A DNA stretch of 64,000 nucleotides. Source: Candidatus Eiseniibacteriota bacterium. Its GTDB lineage: Bacteria > Eisenbacteria > RBG-16-71-46 > CAIMUX01 > VGJL01. The DNA is taken from contig CAWBWI010000001.1 of assembly GCA_963792585.1 (NCBI GenBank), positions 1,632,001 through 1,696,000 of the forward strand. Reading direction: 5' to 3'. Each line of letters begins with the position of its first letter. Position 1 is the first letter of the stretch. Below, in pieces: positions 27,862-45,679 of the stretch. The notes beneath the pieces were generated by a model. That model was not told the origin of the DNA. It saw nothing but the letters and a program-made list of their open reading frames with translations, and did no database searches. Made by a program: the position numbers and the translations under genes.

Positions 27862-30837
27862 ATGCCGCAGATCCGATCCGGCCGCCGCACCTTCGCGCCT
27901 CTGCTCTTCCTCACCACGCTCCTCCTCACGACGCCGGCCGAGGCGCGGACCGCCCCGCCCACGGCAACCTCCGCAGCCTCCCCAACGGATCCACGCTTCG
28001 ACGCCGCCCTCGCGCGCGCCGATTCGCTCCTCCGCGCTCGCAGCGCCGATGCCGCCTCGGCCATCCTCGACTCGCTCATCGAGCGCGCCGGCACAACTGA
28101 CAACGACGAAGCGGCACTGCGCGTCCACCTCGCCCGGGCACGCCTGAACGGACTCGTGGGCCGTCCGCGGCTGGGTCGAGAGAGCGCATCGGCCGCGCTG
28201 GAGCTGGCGAGCGCGCGGCACGATACGGCCTTCGTCTGCCAGGCGCTCCGCTGGCTCGCCGTCGCCGCGCAGCAGGAAGGGTCGATGCTGGAAGCTAGAA
28301 CCCATGCCGCGAGGCTCCTCGATCTCGCGAGAGGCAGGGGCGATCGATTCCACCAGGGTCAGGGCTTCCTCCTGATGGCCTATTCCGATCGGGTCACCGG
28401 CGAGCGGGATGCGGCGGAGGGCGAGTACCTGGAGGCGGTCCGCATCTTTGTCGAGCTCGACCAGCCGGTCTTCGAGCTCATGGCGCACCAGGGCCTCGCC
28501 CAGATCTACCTCGGCCACGGCGACATCGACGGCGCGCGGCGCTCCGATCTTCGCGTCCTGGAGGGAAGCCGCCGGATCGGCGACCCGTACGGCGAGGCGC
28601 GGGCGCTGAACGACCTCGGCGTGCTCGAGTTCACCTACGGCGATCCATCCACGGCCGCGGGCTACTACACGAGCGCCTTCGAGCTCCAGGTGCGGATGGG
28701 CGATGTGCCCGGCAGCGTGACGAGTGCGAAGAATCTGGCGGTCCTCCACACTTACATGGGCGAGTTCGACGAGGCGATGCGCGTGCTGGAGGACGCTCTT
28801 GCCCGTTGCGAAGCAGCCGGTCTTCGGAGCCAGGAGGCCGCGGTTCTGGAGCAGATGGCGATCGTCCGCCGGGAGGAAGGTATCCATGCCAAGGCGGTTG
28901 AGCTGTTCCGACGGGCCACGGAACGGACGCCTGGCGACACGCCCGATCCGCTCGCCGGGATCCTCACAGGGCTTGCCCGGACGCTGAGCATGCGGGACAG
29001 CACGGAGGCGGGGATCGCGCTCATGCTCGACCGGATCGAGCCGATGCGGGATCGGCTCTCGCCCCTGACCGCGTACAACGCCGAGCGCACACTCGGGGAT
29101 CTCATGCTCCTGGAGGATCGCTTTGCGGAAGCCCTCGAGAGGCTCGAACGAGCGGAGAGCATCGCCCGGCCCCGCGGCTTCGGCTTCCTGGTCGGGGTTC
29201 TTGCCCTTCAAGCGCGCTGCCACTCCCGTCTGAACCATCCCGACAGCGCGCGCGCATGCCTTGACCGCGCCGTCGCGTCGTGGGAGTCGGAGCGCGGTCG
29301 GATGCGGGATCCGATCTGGCGCGAGCAGCTCGAACTGGACGGCCGTCTGCTCTTCACGGAGATCTTGAGGCGGACGCTCGCGGACACGGTGCTGGGATCG
29401 GAGCAGGAGCGAGCCGGGCGCGCGTTCGAGTCGCTCCAGCGGTTCAAGACTCGGACGCTGGTCGAGCGGATGTTGGGTGCCTCCTCGGCCGGAATGGATT
29501 CGGCGGACTCCGCCGATTCGGCGGTGCCGGCGGGTCCGGACGCGAGAGCATTCGAGCGACTCCGCGGCGGCGTGCAGTTGGATGATCTTCAGGATCGCTG
29601 GCTCGGCGAGGACGAGATCCTGCTCGACTTCTTCCAGACGTCCGACGGCGTCTATCTATTCGGAGTGACCCGGTCGGATTGCAGGGTCACCTGGATTCCG
29701 TTCGACAGGGACACGCTAGCAACCGTCCTCCGGCGCTACAGGCAGCTCGCGTCGACGAAGCCGGGAGATACATCGACCGGGGCGGGAGATGCGCCCCAGG
29801 CGGGTCGCGCGCTGCTCGAGGCCGCGGGAGCCCGCTTGTCGAACTCGTTCCTGTCGGAAACGGCCGATCTCTTAGCGACGCACGAGCGGATCCTGCTCGC
29901 ACCGGATGGAGCGTTCCAACTCGTTCCGATCGAGCTCTGGCCGGCACCGTCGGCCGCCGGCGGATCACCCGGGCTGCCCGCACTGCCCGGGTCCCCCGGG
30001 TCGCCTGCAGCAACGACCGCCCCCCCGCTGATCGATCACTGGAAGATCTCCCGGGTTCCCTCCGCCGCGGTGCTCGAGGATTGCCGATCGCGGAGCGCGA
30101 GTGTGCCCGCGCTCGATCGTCCGGCCGTGATCCTGGCCGTGACCGGCAAGGCGCGACCCGGGCGCGCGGATCTGTCGTGGGCGTCGAAGGAGACGGCCTG
30201 GCTCGTGCGCTCGTTCCGTGGGGCGCGGGCGCGATCAATCTCGGGCAGCGAATATTCCCCGGCCTGGACCCCGGAGCTCGATCGCTGCGACGTCCTTCAT
30301 CTGGCCGCGCATGTCACGGTTGATGACGCCCACCCCTGGCGCTCCGGCCTCCCCGGCCTGCGGGCCCAGGAGATCGCAAAGCGGAGGCTCTCGGCACGGC
30401 TGGCGGTCCTGGCCGGATGCGAGTCGGCGGGAGGACGCGTCGTCTCCGGTGAAGGGGTGCTCGGATTGACATCCGCGCTGGAGGTGGCGGGACTGCCCAC
30501 GGTCGTGGCCACACTCTGGCCCGTCAGCGATCGGGTCACGTGGACCTTGACCCGGTCCTTCTACTCCGCGCTTGCCGCGGGACGCTCGGCCGGAGATGCT
30601 CTTCGGCTGGCCCAGAACACGGTTCGCGCCGATCCCCGAACGAGCCACCCCTTCTACTGGGCCGGGTTCGTCCTGATCGGCGAGGCGGAGACCCGGATCC
30701 CGTTGCAACACAAGGGCCCGCGCCCGGCTCTCCTTGCGAGCATCGCGGCGCTTGCCGCCGCCCTGGCGGTCGCGGGCTATCTCGGGCACCGATATCGCAG
30801 CCGGCGCTGTGATTCCGGCGCGGGAGGTGACTCCTAG
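27862..30837 (+). CDS. Exported TPR-CHAT (caspase-like) protease with C-terminal TM anchor
   Basis: Signal peptide, TPRs (ARALNDLG, AKNLA), DVLHLAAH and LAGCES dyad, ATLWPVSD, HPFYWAGFVLIG, TM + basic tail. Confidence 0.93.
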   Translation: MPQIRSGRRTFAPLLFLTTLLLTTPAEARTAPPTATSAASPTDPRFDAALARADSLLRARSADAASAILDSLIERAGTTDNDEAALRVHLARARLNGLVGRPRLGRESASAALELASARHDTAFVCQALRWLAVAAQQEGSMLEARTHAARLLDLARGRGDRFHQGQGFLLMAYSDRVTGERDAAEGEYLEAVRIFVELDQPVFELMAHQGLAQIYLGHGDIDGARRSDLRVLEGSRRIGDPYGEARALNDLGVLEFTYGDPSTAAGYYTSAFELQVRMGDVPGSVTSAKNLAVLHTYMGEFDEAMRVLEDALARCEAAGLRSQEAAVLEQMAIVRREEGIHAKAVELFRRATERTPGDTPDPLAGILTGLARTLSMRDSTEAGIALMLDRIEPMRDRLSPLTAYNAERTLGDLMLLEDRFAEALERLERAESIARPRGFGFLVGVLALQARCHSRLNHPDSARACLDRAVASWESERGRMRDPIWREQLELDGRLLFTEILRRTLADTVLGSEQERAGRAFESLQRFKTRTLVERMLGASSAGMDSADSADSAVPAGPDARAFERLRGGVQLDDLQDRWLGEDEILLDFFQTSDGVYLFGVTRSDCRVTWIPFDRDTLATVLRRYRQLASTKPGDTSTGAGDAPQAGRALLEAAGARLSNSFLSETADLLATHERILLAPDGAFQLVPIELWPAPSAAGGSPGLPALPGSPGSPAATTAPPLIDHWKISRVPSAAVLEDCRSRSASVPALDRPAVILAVTGKARPGRADLSWASKETAWLVRSFRGARARSISGSEYSPAWTPELDRCDVLHLAAHVTVDDAHPWRSGLPGLRAQEIAKRRLSARLAVLAGCESAGGRVVSGEGVLGLTSALEVAGLPTVVATLWPVSDRVTWTLTRSFYSALAAGRSAGDALRLAQNTVRADPRTSHPFYWAGFVLIGEAETRIPLQHKGPRPALLASIAALAAALAVAGYLGHRYRSRRCDSGAGGDS
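30808..30833 (+). promoter_or_regulatory. Putative ECF autoregulatory promoter
   Basis: TGTGATTCC-N11-TGACTC, 7 nt before the sigma ATG; second copy at 32205. Confidence 0.65.
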
Positions 30838-30840
30838 AAG

Positions 30841-31443
30841 ATGAGAGGCAGTTGGCGGGAGGATGCGACGGACGAGGAGCTCGTCCGCGCGGTTCAGCAG
30901 GATGCGGCCGGTGAGGACGGTCGTGGCGCCGCCGAGGCTCTCTTCGATCGATACTGGAGACGCGTCTACCTGTGGTGCCATCGGCGGGTCGGGAATCACG
31001 ACACCGCCTGCGATCTGGCGCAGGATGTGCTCCTGAGCGCATACCAGAACATCAGGTCGTTCGAGGGGCGCTGCCTGTACAGCTCGTGGCTCTTCACGAT
31101 CATGCGCAACCGGTGCTTCCGGGCGCTGCGACGGCCGAGCCTCGTCCGGGACGAGGATGCGGAGATGGATCGCCTGGCCGACGGGCGCCTTCCGATCGAC
31201 GATGCGATCGCGGAGAAGGAGGACGAGGAATCCCTCCTGCGCCTGGTGCAGGAGTGCCTGGATCCGATCGAACAGGAGGCGCTGTGGCTCCGGGTCGTCG
31301 AACGGATCCCGGTGGACGAGATCACGGTGCGCCTGAAGCTCACCGCGGCATCCGGCGCTCGTGGTGTGCTGCAGAGCGGCCGACGCAAGCTGCGGGCCGC
31401 GATGGCGAAACGGGAGGACCGGCCGGAAGGGGATCGCCCATGA
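30841..31443 (+). CDS. ECF RNA polymerase sigma factor
   Basis: TDEELV, DLAQDVLL, FEGR..YSSWLFTIMRN, region-4 DEI. Confidence 0.92.
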   Translation: MRGSWREDATDEELVRAVQQDAAGEDGRGAAEALFDRYWRRVYLWCHRRVGNHDTACDLAQDVLLSAYQNIRSFEGRCLYSSWLFTIMRNRCFRALRRPSLVRDEDAEMDRLADGRLPIDDAIAEKEDEESLLRLVQECLDPIEQEALWLRVVERIPVDEITVRLKLTAASGARGVLQSGRRKLRAAMAKREDRPEGDRP

Positions 31444-32180
31444 CGAGTTCGTGCATACCGTCGGAAGAGATCGGACGGGTCGCGGGGCTTCCCCTCGATT
31501 CCCCGGAGCGCGTGCACGCCGCGAACTGCCCGCGTTGCCGCGCGAGCCTGGCCACCTATCTGGAGTTCATGGGGGACGGCACCGTACCCGCGGGGGCGAT
31601 GCCGGGCGCGGCGGAGGCAATGCTCCGCGCCGCGTTTCGCGAAGCTGCCGCGGCCGGCGCGGGCGTGCCGGCACCACCATCTCCCGCACCCGTGCCGGCT
31701 CCCCAGGCGACGCCGGCGCGTTCCCGCGCCGCGGACTCGGGCTTCCTCGCGACTCTGCGCGCGATCCTGCGCCCGGCAGTCCTGGTCCCCGCGGTCGTGG
31801 GGATCGTGGCGATCGGCATCTACGCCGGCTACGACCGGTACCGGATGACCCACGCGCCCGATGCGCTCCGCGGGGCCGAATCGACGGGCAAGGCCGGCGC
31901 CGCCGCGATCGAGGTCGAATCCGCCCATGCCGTCGAGAGCGGGATCGAAATGCGCTGGCGGGCCGTCCCCGGCGCCACATCCTACGGGGTGACGATCCTG
32001 GGCGATGGTCTCGGGGACCTCGCGCGCGTCGCCACTCAGGGCGAGACGGTCCGTCTGGTCCGCTGGGAGGAGATGAAGTCCCGACCGCGTCCCGGCGCGA
32101 CCATCGGCTGGCAGGTGAGCGCCTTCCGGGACGGAGCCGCGATCGCGCGGTCGAGGATCGGAGCAATCGAGATCCCCTGA
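31440..32180 (+). CDS. Membrane anti-sigma factor (ZAS-type)
   Basis: ATGA-coupled to the sigma; HAANCPRC zinc motif, single TM, Fn3-like external domain (W.AVPGA.SY.V). Confidence 0.82.
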   Translation: MTSSCIPSEEIGRVAGLPLDSPERVHAANCPRCRASLATYLEFMGDGTVPAGAMPGAAEAMLRAAFREAAAAGAGVPAPPSPAPVPAPQATPARSRAADSGFLATLRAILRPAVLVPAVVGIVAIGIYAGYDRYRMTHAPDALRGAESTGKAGAAAIEVESAHAVESGIEMRWRAVPGATSYGVTILGDGLGDLARVATQGETVRLVRWEEMKSRPRPGATIGWQVSAFRDGAAIARSRIGAIEIP

Positions 32181-41990: not shown

Positions 41991-42599
41991 TCACGATCGT
42001 TGGTGAGCGCCCGCGAGTTCGCTCGCGCGCCCCGCGCGCGTCGCGTCGGTGACCTCGACCAGGCGGCCCGTCTTCACGTCGTAGACGTAACCGTAGATCG
42101 GGATCTCCGGTGGGACGAGCGGGTGGCGGCGGATGCGATCGACATCCTCTACCACCGACTTCTCCTGGTTCTTGATGGTCAGCCAGTTGATGAAGCGTCC
42201 TTCGTCCGATCCGCCGCCGCCACCCGGGTCCTTCCAGGCGCCGCCCTCGAGGCCCGCGGTCCGGAGACTGCTCGCCAGGAGGCCGCGAATCGTCTCGTCG
42301 TCGAAGTAGAGCATTCCGCAGTCGGAGTGATGGATGACGAACCACTCGCGCGTGCCGAGCAGCTTGTACGAGATGACGAGCGATCGGATCGCGTCGTCGC
42401 TCGCGCGGCCGCCCGCGTTGCGGATCACGTGCGCGTCGCCTTCCGCCAGCCCGGCGTACTTGGCGGGATCGAGACGAGCGTCCATGCACGTGAGGATGGC
42501 GAATTGGCGCGCCGGCGGCAGCGCGAGCTGCCCCTTGGCGCCAAACGAACTCACATAGGCGGCATTCGCTGCCAGGACTTCATGGAGGATCTTGCTCAT
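41991..42599 (-). CDS. Beta-class carbonic anhydrase, clade D (COS hydrolase-like)
   Basis: [22 protein letters not shown] zinc ligands, GYVYDVKTG. Confidence 0.93.
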
Positions 42600-42633
42600 G
42601 GTGTCAGTGCTCCCTGCTCCGATTCATTCGCTT

Positions 42634-42662
42634 AAAACAAAACGCCGGCCATGGGGCCGGCG
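42634..42662 (-). terminator. Intrinsic terminator inside the 5' leader of the beta-CA gene (attenuator)
   Basis: CGCCGGCC-CCAT-GGCCGGCG-TTTTGTTTT, ending 35 nt before the CA start. Confidence 0.88.
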
Positions 42663-42692
42663 GGTTCTCGATGAGCCTCTGGACGCTTCGCC

Positions 42693-42797
42693 CTAGATGC
42701 TAGGCGTCCTCCCGCCGGCACACCCTCGGCGACAACAACAAGCGCCCAAGCTGTTGCCATACAACACGTTGTGGGTCCGATGGGTGAGATTCAACAT
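42693..42797 (-). CDS. Poly-Cys leader peptide (34 aa)
   Basis: MLNLTHRTHNVLYGNSLGACCCRRGCAGGRTPSI*; four TGT codons; below the ORF-track cutoff. Confidence 0.78.
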   Translation of the reverse strand: MLNLTHRTHNVLYGNSLGACCCRRGCAGGRTPSI

Positions 42798-42803
42798 GTT
42801 ATT

Positions 42804-42832
42804 AGCATAATGCTCAACATTAGTCAGGGCAA
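42804..42832 (-). promoter_or_regulatory. Sigma70-type promoter giving a leaderless transcript at the leader ATG
   Basis: TTGCCC-N17-TATGCT-N6-ATG. Confidence 0.68.
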
Positions 42833-43742: not shown

Positions 43743-43955
43743 AGACCGACCGTGAGTCCCAGCGGGACGCGGCGGGACGGCCCCCGCCGCGATCCCCAAG
43801 CCCACACTACAGCCTCCTTGTAGCAACGAGAATGTGTTCACAATCAATTCCTCACAATCGCCTTGTCCTCAAGCAATAAAACTCCATAGGATCCTCGGTT
43901 CGCTGAATACGGCCGCCGCGACGCGATTGACATGAAATCCCAAGGAGGGGCGACC

Positions 43956-44756
43956 GTGGCCAAGGAACAGGACAAGATCAGTCAAACTTTGAAGCAACTC
44001 GCCGAACAGGCGCGTTTGGATTCGATCGGCAGCATCGACTACCTCACGAACGCCAAGGCGATCGCTCTCGCCGACGGCAAGGTCCAGGATGCCATCAAGG
44101 AAGTTCTGAAACGAGACATGCGACTGACGGAGATTCGCCCCATGCGCGGCTTCGGCTCCGGCCTCATGTCCTTCCCCATCCAATTGGTATTCCGTTCGGG
44201 AACCGGTGACAGCCCGATCGATCTCGAGACCGTGTCCTTGGTCGTCACGGTGGAGATCCCCACGCGCTCGGTCAAGCGCGTCGCCGAGGCTCCCGCCGGG
44301 ATCGAGGGAGCTGCGGGGGACATCCCCTTCTCGATCGCGGCGACGGCGCACGCCCCCTATCGCGGCGCGCCGCTCACCGAACTCCAGGGCAGGACGATGC
44401 GGGAGAGCGCATTCTACGCCGGCCTCGGATTCCCCGTGGGTGCAGGTCGCCCGTCGGCGGGGCAGTGGACGATCGACGACTACAAGACCAGCGACACCCC
44501 CACGGGAACGGACACCGGGAGCACCTCCTACTCCGACGGCGTGGCCGACGACTCGGAGGTCGACGATTCGGGTTCCGACGAGCCAGTCATCGACGACCAC
44601 ATCACCGAGGGGCACCCGGGAGATCCCGGATACTGGTCGCCGTTCGATCCGGGCCGCCCTTTCGGAGGCGATCTCCCCCGACCCGGCGACCGTCCGGGTG
44701 TCGGCCCGCGACCGGATCCGCGAGGAGGCACTGCCCGCAAGCGGTCCGGACGATGA
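43956..44756 (+). CDS. Putative large graspetide precursor
   Basis: AAGGAGG SD + GTG; Thr/Ser-rich then Asp-rich segment around a DG turn; ATGA-coupled to the ATP-grasp. Confidence 0.68.
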   Translation: MAKEQDKISQTLKQLAEQARLDSIGSIDYLTNAKAIALADGKVQDAIKEVLKRDMRLTEIRPMRGFGSGLMSFPIQLVFRSGTGDSPIDLETVSLVVTVEIPTRSVKRVAEAPAGIEGAAGDIPFSIAATAHAPYRGAPLTELQGRTMRESAFYAGLGFPVGAGRPSAGQWTIDDYKTSDTPTGTDTGSTSYSDGVADDSEVDDSGSDEPVIDDHITEGHPGDPGYWSPFDPGRPFGGDLPRPGDRPGVGPRPDPRGGTARKRSGR

Positions 44757-45679
44757 TTCTCCTGATCGCGGAGCCGCAGGATGTCCACGCACGCGTGGTG
44801 GCGCGCCGCCTCGAGCTGCGCGGTGTCTCTCATGCGATCGTGAACTCAGCCGATTTTCCACAGCGCCTGAGGATCTCCGCGCGCTATGCGGATGGCCGCT
44901 TCGCGATCCGCATGGCGAACGGCTCCCCCATCGTCCAGGACGAGGAGATCCAGGGCGTCTGGTTGCGCCGATTCCACGCGCACGACATCTCGACGGCGAT
45001 CTCTGACGAGGCGGTTGCCGCATTCGCCTATCGGGAGGCGCGCGAGCTGTTCCTTGGCTGGACGGCCAGCGTGCGCAATGTCATCAATCCTCGCAGCGAG
45101 GAGTGGCGGGCGGAGCTGAAGCCGTTCCAGCTCTTCGCTGCGCAGGAAGTCGGCCTGCGAATCCCGCGAACCCTGGTCTCGAACGACCCGGCCGAGATCC
45201 ACGCGTTCGCCGACTCGCTCGGCGGCGAGGCGATCTTCAAGGTCCTCTCGGCGACACCGTTCCAGTTCACGGCAACTACGGTCCTCGAGGAACGTCATCT
45301 GGCGATGCTCGATGCCGCGCCCCTCGCGCCCACGATATTCCAGGAACGGATCCGGGCCGACCGGCACCTGCGCGTGACGGTGGTGGACGACCATGTCTTC
45401 ACGGCGGCGATCGAGCCGGTCCGCGAGGAGGGGATGCTCGACTGGAGGCTGGATCGCGACCCGAAGATGGAACCCTACGACCTACCCGAATCGATCGAGC
45501 AGGGCGTGCTGGCGTTGCGCCGCCGGCTCGGATTGCGGTTTGGGGCGATCGACATGATCCTCGACACCAAGGGCGAGTACGTATTCCTGGAGATCAACCC
45601 GGGCGGGCAGTGGCTCTTCGCCGAGATTCATGCGGGGCTGCCGATCTCGGACGCGATCGCGGATGCGCTGATCGGGTAG
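44753..45679 (+). CDS. MvdC/MvdD-family ATP-grasp peptide maturase
   Basis: KPFQL..A..VGL.IP.TL.SND, IFK, APTIFQERI, LRVTVV, DWR, FGAIDMI, FLEINPGGQWLF. Confidence 0.92.
   Translation: MILLIAEPQDVHARVVARRLELRGVSHAIVNSADFPQRLRISARYADGRFAIRMANGSPIVQDEEIQGVWLRRFHAHDISTAISDEAVAAFAYREARELFLGWTASVRNVINPRSEEWRAELKPFQLFAAQEVGLRIPRTLVSNDPAEIHAFADSLGGEAIFKVLSATPFQFTATTVLEERHLAMLDAAPLAPTIFQERIRADRHLRVTVVDDHVFTAAIEPVREEGMLDWRLDRDPKMEPYDLPESIEQGVLALRRRLGLRFGAIDMILDTKGEYVFLEINPGGQWLFAEIHAGLPISDAIADALIG

Follow-up and report, generated by a model that had tools for sequence, protein, structure and literature searches.

What is the function of the short open reading frame (ORF) with consecutive cysteine codons, and of the hairpin behind it, that lie between a promoter-like sequence and a β-carbonic anhydrase (CA) gene in the window, the whole stretch of 64,000 nucleotides analysed here? 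The original prediction was that they form a cysteine-sensing transcription attenuator of the terminator type. This reading is now supported by amino acid specificity, seen as an enrichment of Cys codons, by the conservation of the Cys register and compensatory base pairs in the closest relative (L112), by the geometry of the switch, and by the sulfur genes that follow sister elements. We consider it very probable that the leader is a ribosome-dependent attenuator that senses charged tRNA-Cys, with the CA gene being read when cysteine is scarce. The regulation is predicted from sequence comparison and folding models; what was observed directly is the arrangement of the elements and its conservation, the bias towards Cys, and the sulfur genes next to the sister elements. 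The features are collected in Table 1.

Table 1. Positions of the leader elements and the CA gene in the window, in the order of the predicted transcript.
Feature	Position	Strand	Basis or remark
Predicted sigma-70-type promoter, TTGCCC-17-TATGCT	42804..42832	minus	from sequence
Promoter parts: -35-like TTGCCC; 17-nt spacer; -10-like TATGCT; 6 nt; ATG	42832-42827 (-35-like); 42809-42804 (-10-like); 42797 (ATG)	minus	
34-codon leader ORF, predicted leaderless	42693..42797	minus	ORF listing
Putative sensor codons Cys20-Cys21-Cys22 (TGT x3)	42732..42740	minus	
Cys26, likely not a sensor codon	42720..42722	minus	past modelled switch point; Tyr in L112
Antiterminator 5' arm GCCGGCGGG (codons 27-29)	42711..42719	minus	9/9 identical in L112
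Inner hairpin, contains the uORF stop codon and draws the antiterminator arms together	42681..42709	minus	
Linker, unexpectedly conserved	42665..42680	minus	16/16 identical in L112
Shared segment CCCGCCGGC, antiterminator 3' arm and terminator 5' arm	42656..42664	minus	
Intrinsic terminator (hairpin 42662-42643) and U-tract	42634..42662	minus	terminator scan
Clade-D β-carbonic anhydrase, 202 aa, predicted regulated gene	41991..42599	minus	PF00484

The promoter elements and the ATG are present with the spacings originally described, and inspection of the sequence ahead of this ATG found no Shine-Dalgarno (SD)-like run. The promoter is weak, with 8 of the 12 consensus bases, and is absent from the list of a promoter scanner with a threshold of 9. 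The predicted 34-residue peptide, with Cys at codons 20, 21, 22, and 26, was likewise matched base for base. All four of these codons are TGT, which accounts for 16% of the Cys codons in the long ORFs of the source genome, G000, in which the window belongs to contig C1. The leader ORF starts 6 nt past the -10 box in both the window and L112 and 6-10 nt past it in other leaders, in most of which a TT..-17/18-TA...T pattern is found at 6-10 nt before the start. Across the genome, TA...T at 6-7 nt before the ATGs of long ORFs was counted 22 and 19 times against a background of about 10, an excess of about twofold. On this sequence evidence, the start of the leader ORF is predicted to be leaderless. 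Note that a TAAT-N7-ATTA palindrome (42808-42822), kept in L112 and present in three copies genome-wide, overlaps the promoter spacer and the -10 box; it may be a repressor site, or the trace of an overlapping promoter-like site on the plus strand (42784-42811).

The terminator hairpin has 8 G-C pairs, with a folding energy of -16.7 kcal/mol, and is followed by TTTTGTTTT. The antiterminator 5' arm is a perfect complement of the shared segment (42719-42711 with 42664-42656), which overlaps 7 of the 8 bases of the terminator 5' arm, and the nested helices, including GGACGC/GCGTCC, are able to form. Thus, the 9-nt complementarity, the 8-bp terminator, and the nested helices were all found where they had been predicted. 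A perfect complement of at least 9 bp arose by chance in 1.5% of 20,000 dinucleotide shuffles. The overall folding energy of the 211-nt leader is no better than that of shuffled sequences (z = -0.85). No Rfam family matched the leader at its gathering threshold; the best match, to Acido-1 (21.5 bits against a threshold of 50, E = 0.11), lies over the antiterminator and was rejected as the identity of the leader. Acido-1 is classed as probably not cis-regulatory in the accessible text of PMC2864571. The CA gene has its own SD-like sequence, GGGAG (42614-42610), which lies past the terminator and is not part of the switch helices. Six bases of the linker are complementary to the region of the CA start codon and are paired with it in both predicted leader structures, and a second, translational layer of control through this pairing is possible.

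Is the RNA or the peptide under selection? L112 precedes a CA with about 80% identity to that of the window; the 17/6 spacing of its promoter, the length of its ORF, and the position of its stop codon are all as in the window. Between the two leader ORFs, 11 codons are identical, 7 differ synonymously, and 17 differ nonsynonymously. Cys20-Cys21 is kept, and 8 of the 9 nt in codons 20-22 are identical, compared with 33 of 57 in codons 1-19. Furthermore, the antiterminator arm (9/9 nt), its partner arm (9/9), and the terminator (19/20) are preserved. The inner hairpin (leader nt 88-117) has only 16 of 30 nt identical, with its pairing kept; the inner helix GGACGC/GCGTCC of the window reads GGGCTC/GAGCCC in L112, which amounts to two compensatory pairs. 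Since the peptide drifts while the arms, the Cys register, and the pairing are kept, the selection seen in this alignment is on the RNA structure and the Cys codons, and not on the peptide.

Ribosome-masked folding was performed with the RNA from 18 nt before to 12 nt after the A-site codon hidden and the remainder folded up to the terminator 5' arm. In the window leader, the antiterminator pairing probability is 0.70-0.95 for ribosome positions at codons 2-23, falls to 0.40 at codon 24, and is 0.00-0.01 at codons 25-34. With the ribosome at the stop codon it is 0.58, a value obtained with a mask that ignores the bulk of the ribosome inside the loop. Folding with and without a masked ribosome, which had been suggested as a check, thus gave an antiterminator that is available at codons 20-23 and lost at codons 25-34, and the modelled switch point sits just after the Cys run. 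The model agrees with the original prediction that stalling at the Cys run would lead to read-through, but not that stalling frees the antiterminator, which forms in the nascent RNA without any ribosome (0.70). In this nascent RNA, the masked folds contain no strong protector helix. Because the antiterminator forms without a ribosome and is lost at codons 25-34, stalling likely holds the ribosome off the arm rather than releasing a protector helix. The role proposed for the Cys codons as the sensor likely stands for codons 20-22 only, because Cys26 comes after the modelled switch point and is replaced by Tyr in L112. Without a ribosome, the antiterminator probability is 0.98 in L112 and 0.00-0.10 in L086, L144, and L190. 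In the finished window leader, the terminator has a probability of 0.99 and is preferred at nearly every ribosome position, with energies of -37.4 kcal/mol for the terminator and -34.5 kcal/mol for the antiterminator structure. The switch would thus be kinetic, like that of classical attenuators, the terminator being the structure preferred by the finished leader at equilibrium.

For the comparison of leaders, a metric of pairing with any partner was too noisy and was replaced by arm-specific measures; 31 of the 32 leaders given were used, as the terminator of L294 was not found under the stricter rule. In 28 of 31 leaders, a ribosome at the Cys run leaves the terminator arm more strongly sequestered than one at the stop codon does. 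Part of this difference follows from the comparison itself, as there is more free RNA upstream. Sequestration of the arm at the Cys run is above the mean of the shuffles in 25 of 31 leaders, and 18 are in the top 10% of shuffles. The window leader is modestly above its shuffles, 8% of 60 being as strong. The antiterminator modelled for L083, which is from the same family, is weak (0.13-0.25), and 93% of the L083 shuffles are as strong. L082, L086, L007, and L144 have leaders of dissimilar sequence, and each of these contains a complement to the terminator arm of that leader, free while the ribosome is at the Cys codons and no longer available when it has moved on.

In the proposed mechanism, transcription would start at or near the ATG at 42797, and the ribosome would load without an SD sequence. 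If cysteine is plentiful, the ribosome would pass codons 20-22 and cover the arm at codons 27-29 together with the inner hairpin. With the arm covered, the terminator would form, and transcription would end near 42635. If cysteine is scarce, the ribosome would wait at the three TGT codons, and the 9-bp antiterminator would take the terminator 5' arm before the 3' arm is made, allowing the CA gene to be read. Under this model, a leader deprived of its ATG would be read through and not super-attenuated.

How widespread is the leader before CA genes? CA loci were taken from genome contigs and from metagenomes (the best 80 of 600 in each case), with further loci from the own phylum, in which 7 of 206 genomes match at E 1e-25, and from the Gemmatimonadota, the phylum of G207, in which 29 of 301 genomes match. 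Within the own phylum, the leader precedes the CA in G000, in G003 and G005 of the same family, and in G079 and G155, and it is absent before the CAs of G009 and G017. A census without any filter for Cys covered 184 CA loci for which 250 nt or more of upstream sequence was available, L156 and L201 having been dropped as duplicates of L044; the criterion was a promoter-like site 5-10 nt before a short ORF. Such an ORF is present at 19 of the 184 loci, counts that include the window and its close kin and are not independent events; 18 of the 19 ORFs have at least two Cys codons, and 13 have a Cys-Cys pair. Of the residues in these ORFs, 19.3% are Cys; the corresponding figures are 2.8% for the shifted frames and 1.1% genome-wide. 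No short ORF next to a promoter-like site is present at the other 165 loci, among them L084 and L085 of the same order. A terminator was found before the CA in 13 of the 18 Cys-bearing leaders and was not detected in L028, L068, L155, L176, and L220. The number of Cys residues in the homologous leader peptides ranges from 2 to 11, with varying spacing, and is highest in L125 (11 of 34 residues) and L199 (11 of 32); the rarer codon is favoured, with 90 TGT and 66 TGC. A midpoint-rooted tree of 192 CAs has the 21 leader-bearing proteins at seven separate positions, with weak deep nodes, which suggests that the coupling of leader and CA arose repeatedly.

Thus, the search for poly-Cys short ORFs with covarying stems before orthologous CAs, which had been proposed as a check, gave 18 loci with at least two Cys codons and, in L112, two compensatory pairs. 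The lack of conserved Cys codons or stems that would have spoken against an attenuator was not seen, as 18 of 19 ORFs bear Cys and the arms are kept in L112. Among the loci examined, L028, L155, L176, and L220 have leaderless Cys-rich ORFs before CAs without an intrinsic terminator, followed in L028 and L155 by pyrimidine-rich tracts, and are possible Rho-dependent or translational variants. At L111, in G155, the Cys leader lies about 200 nt before the CA, with the contig end 255 nt upstream; its apparent start codon is a TTG preceded by an SD-like GGAGG, and it seems not to be leaderless.

The same layout is found before other genes in the own phylum and in the Gemmatimonadota, namely, cysH-cysG/cysI, sbp-cysT-cysW-cysA, cysK, a cysM-like/JAB/MoeZ-like operon, TauE, YeiH, and metK, and also before pairs of ATP-grasp and SfnG-like monooxygenase genes. 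In the own phylum, the pattern of a promoter with three Cys codons (TGYx3) is barely enriched, with 22 places against 15 control matches. Four places have an in-frame ATG 7-10 nt past the -10 box, all four with terminators, and they precede a CA (L229, the L083 locus), a cysteine-synthase-like/JAB/MoeZ-like operon (L240), and two ATP-grasp genes (L242 and L246), one of which, when annotated further, is followed by an SfnG-like monooxygenase. In the Gemmatimonadota, a promoter-start-Cys-Cys pattern occurs in 99 of 301 genomes, mostly out of frame, and 8 of 30 automatically chosen loci are in frame. Five of these eight have a short ORF with the Cys run in its first half and a stop at 27-30 codons; all five have terminators and precede TauE, porin-TauE, sulfate ABC, or cysH genes. 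No terminator was found at the other three. A set selected by eye comprised 20 in-frame candidates among the fully shown matches, 5 of them shared with the 30-locus set; 19 matched the script, and 14 of these have a terminator. Those 14 precede cysH (3), sulfate ABC (1), cysK (1), TauE or porin-TauE (4), YeiH (1), ATP-grasp and monooxygenase (3), and metK (1) genes. Of the five without a detected terminator, two precede cysH or a monooxygenase operon, two precede unrelated genes, and one is cut by the contig end. In an alignment of nine Gemmatimonad-type leaders, with an invariant core and an imperfect register, the antiterminator shows no double changes in 8 pairs, and one pair is broken in five of the nine.

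Leaderless poly-Leu ORFs with terminators (L262 and L263) came from the same Gemmatimonadota search and serve as an internal control. The ORFs at L262 (1500-1750) and L263 are poly-Leu/Val, and they are likely a leucine attenuator in this phylum; the gene after the L262 leader, named from its N-terminal motif, is presumably LeuA-like. The ATP-grasp and SfnG-like monooxygenase pair recurs under poly-Cys leaders at L283, L292, L293, L294, and L301 and is likely an undescribed organosulfur-scavenging module. At L297, a short Cys-rich leader with a terminator stands before metK.

Within G000, BLAST found no other copies of the leader. Among 688 terminator-like sites, six have a Cys-rich ORF upstream, and the promoter layout is present only at the window site. 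A candidate at C1:163800 was rejected, being the tail of a PALP (cysteine-synthase-like) gene and not a leader. No poly-Cys leader was seen by eye before the cysS, cysK-like, metK, and moeZ-like genes of this genome. In metatranscriptomes, 7-17% of the words were found in six runs, and the four runs compared are assembled contigs of related strains, one contig spanning both divergent genes; because the matches are assembled contigs, they give no reading of transcript ends, strand, or level. Several other features of this genome were observed. Sulfate ABC-like genes at C5 ~28600-31900 lie in AT-rich DNA in a genome of 65% GC, and this region may be of foreign origin or a contaminant from binning. 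Upstream of C1:172867, one metK copy has a leader that looks by eye like a structured cis-regulatory RNA and is possibly a SAM riboswitch. On C3, a cysK-like gene and cysS are in frameshifted pieces (866600-867500 and 1185100-1186200), which are likely assembly errors. In the window (43932-45679), an MvdD/RimK ATP-grasp gene follows an ORF that has an acidic stretch rich in Ser, Thr, and Asp, and we take this pair to resemble a graspetide precursor and its ligase.

The gene after the leader is, as predicted, a clade-D β-carbonic anhydrase, assigned by similarity. The CxDxR and HxxC motifs are visible in its sequence, giving Cys/His/Cys zinc ligands by motif, and its nine PDB matches include 5ztp, 6jqc, 1ylk, 3las, 3vqj, 3ten, and 1g5c. 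Among these are the clade-D COS hydrolase 3vqj, matched with only 101 bits, the CS2 hydrolase 3ten, and Rv1284 (1ylk). The CA shares PF00484 and the zinc-ligand motifs with 3vqj and 3ten, and is set apart by an insertion of ~20-25 aa relative to the best PDB matches. By sequence, it belongs to a separate subfamily within clade D without a characterised close homologue. G000 has several cysteine-synthase-like genes and one weak match to the PAPS_reduct domain. A sulfite-reductase domain was not found in G000 (84% complete) or in G003, G005, G079, and G155 (97, 94, 98, and 75% complete, respectively), and one was found in G207, from the Gemmatimonadota.

Could these observations be explained without a terminator-type attenuator? 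A functional Cys-rich, metallothionein-like peptide, serving for metal, redox, or sulfur storage beside the zinc enzyme while the hairpin merely ends the transcript, would fit the very high Cys content of L125 and L199, the Cys/His ligands of the CA, and the promoter-overlapping palindrome kept in L112. However, the peptide drifts, with 17 nonsynonymous and 7 synonymous differences from L112, while no change is seen in the RNA arms; the peptides differ in the spacing of their Cys residues and in the number of these (2 to 11); the sister elements stand before sulfate-assimilation genes and not metal genes; and the rarer TGT codon is favoured (90 to 66). We therefore regard such a peptide as very improbable. 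It is only slightly less improbable that the uORF senses cysteine but acts mainly on translation or through Rho, as in mycobacteria, with the hairpin as a constitutive, leaky terminator. The location of the CA SD sequence outside the switch helices and downstream of the terminator argues against this, as does the recurrence of a terminator and a matching upstream arm in dissimilar leaders at the spacing of a ribosome switch; in its favour are the four CA leaders with poly-Cys ORFs and no terminator (L028, L155, L176, and L220), the preference of the finished leader for the terminator whatever the ribosome position, and the 6 nt of the conserved linker that pair with the CA start in both structures. 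A chance arrangement in an intergenic region is effectively refuted by the Cys enrichment found without a Cys filter, the conserved register with compensatory pairs, and the sulfur-gene context, even though complementarity comes easily in GC-rich DNA and, within the phylum, the raw pattern of a promoter with TGY codons occurs little more often than its control (22 against 15).

If the leader is a cysteine-sensing attenuator, what does the CA do? As a gene switched on by cysteine shortage, it should help to make cysteine, and we think that it probably contributes to the supply of sulfur; in the simplest case, it would hydrolyse COS (or CS2) and so provide cysteine synthase with H2S. According to the accessible part of PMC8209446, the clade-D COS and CS2 hydrolases show low activity in the hydration of CO2. 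In the text available from PMC10880591, a clade-D COSase is described as allowing a fungus and transformed E. coli to use COS as their only source of sulfur, and the role of COSase in heterotrophic bacteria is called unknown. The attenuator could be real and the CA an ordinary CO2/bicarbonate enzyme, or one that detoxifies another sulfur compound, with only an indirect link to cysteine. The CA is without a characterised close homologue, its PDB matches are short fungal and bacterial clade-D enzymes with only 101 bits for the COS hydrolase, and the leader is absent from most homologues, all of which would be compatible with such an enzyme. Nevertheless, the leader-bearing CAs in seven places of the tree, with its weak deep nodes, suggest a repeated coupling to cysteine, and the low CO2 hydration of the characterised clade-D hydrolases (PMC8209446, in the part seen) also speaks against it; we consider it a minority possibility, of some weight but rather unlikely. 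A role in sulfur supply leads to a broader proposal, for which we see about even chances: a regulon of leaderless poly-Cys uORFs and terminators, having arisen several times, would run the response to sulfur starvation in both phyla, and the widespread CA subfamily would be its COS/CS2 hydrolase for cysteine synthesis in heterotrophs, some of them without sulfite reductase.

How does this leader compare with known systems? In mycobacteria, leaderless poly-Cys sORFs (Ms5788A and others) attenuate translation, as described in the main text of 10.1101/834739. The present leaders are like these in having a short ORF, here predicted to be leaderless, in which Cys codons follow one another; each operon has one such ORF, ahead of cysteine-related genes, and together they would form a regulon without a regulator protein. 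In contrast to the dissected mycobacterial case, in which the SD sequence is sequestered, the window has an intrinsic terminator and an antiterminator, and the CA SD sequence is outside the switch; pairing of the Cys codons with the SD region, a mycobacterial feature, is not present in either fold of the window leader. The word 'carbonic' is absent from the main text of that study, outside of which lies its Table 1, an image. The classical trp/his/leu-type attenuators, as outlined in the accessible text of PMC5314783 and 10.1101/834739, have a uORF with regulatory codons, an antiterminator over the terminator 5' arm, and a U-tract. The window leader has the same parts, but it would sense Cys, is predicted to be leaderless, and has no strong protector helix in the nascent RNA, and its target is neither a biosynthetic enzyme nor a synthetase. 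In Actinobacteria, leader ORFs with Cys runs were predicted before cys operons, without terminator hairpins and with a suggestion of Rho dependence (PMC1262725, available text), and the terminator-less CA leaders L028, L155, and L176 resemble these leader peptides.

A precedent for the terminator is uORFC-8-2, a predicted terminator-type attenuator with tandem Cys codons before cysS in Rhodobacterales (PMC8632094, in the portion available). It differs from the window leader, in a comparison by description only, in belonging to an alphaproteobacterial order, in standing before cysS only, and in having UGC as the dominant codon, and neither a leaderless start nor a regulon is described in that portion of the account. 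Thus, the original statement that a terminator-based Cys attenuator on a β-CA is undescribed holds for the CA, while a terminator-type Cys attenuator had already been predicted for cysS. The accessible text of PMC13236596 and PMC5314783 adds no Cys terminator case. The literature searched, with subscription papers and supplements outside its scope, contained no paper on attenuators in the Gemmatimonadota and no Cys attenuator before a carbonic anhydrase; attenuator surveys in Russian journals may contain additional predicted Cys cases. In the literature found, therefore, the joining of a predicted leaderless Cys sensor to an intrinsic-terminator output, its regulon-wide use, and the CA target are undescribed.

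If the proposed attenuator is correct, terminator-type attenuation would extend to a whole cysteine regulon in little-studied phyla, and a mycobacterial-style leaderless poly-Cys sensor would be joined to a trp-type output. The leader may also help in finding genes for sulfur acquisition in uncultured lineages, as a simple marker in genome sequences. A cysteine-starvation switch on a CA gene points to sulfur scavenging, and, if the CA is the COS/CS2 hydrolase of such a regulon, the leader would supply a physiological reason for the degradation of atmospheric COS by heterotrophic bacteria.
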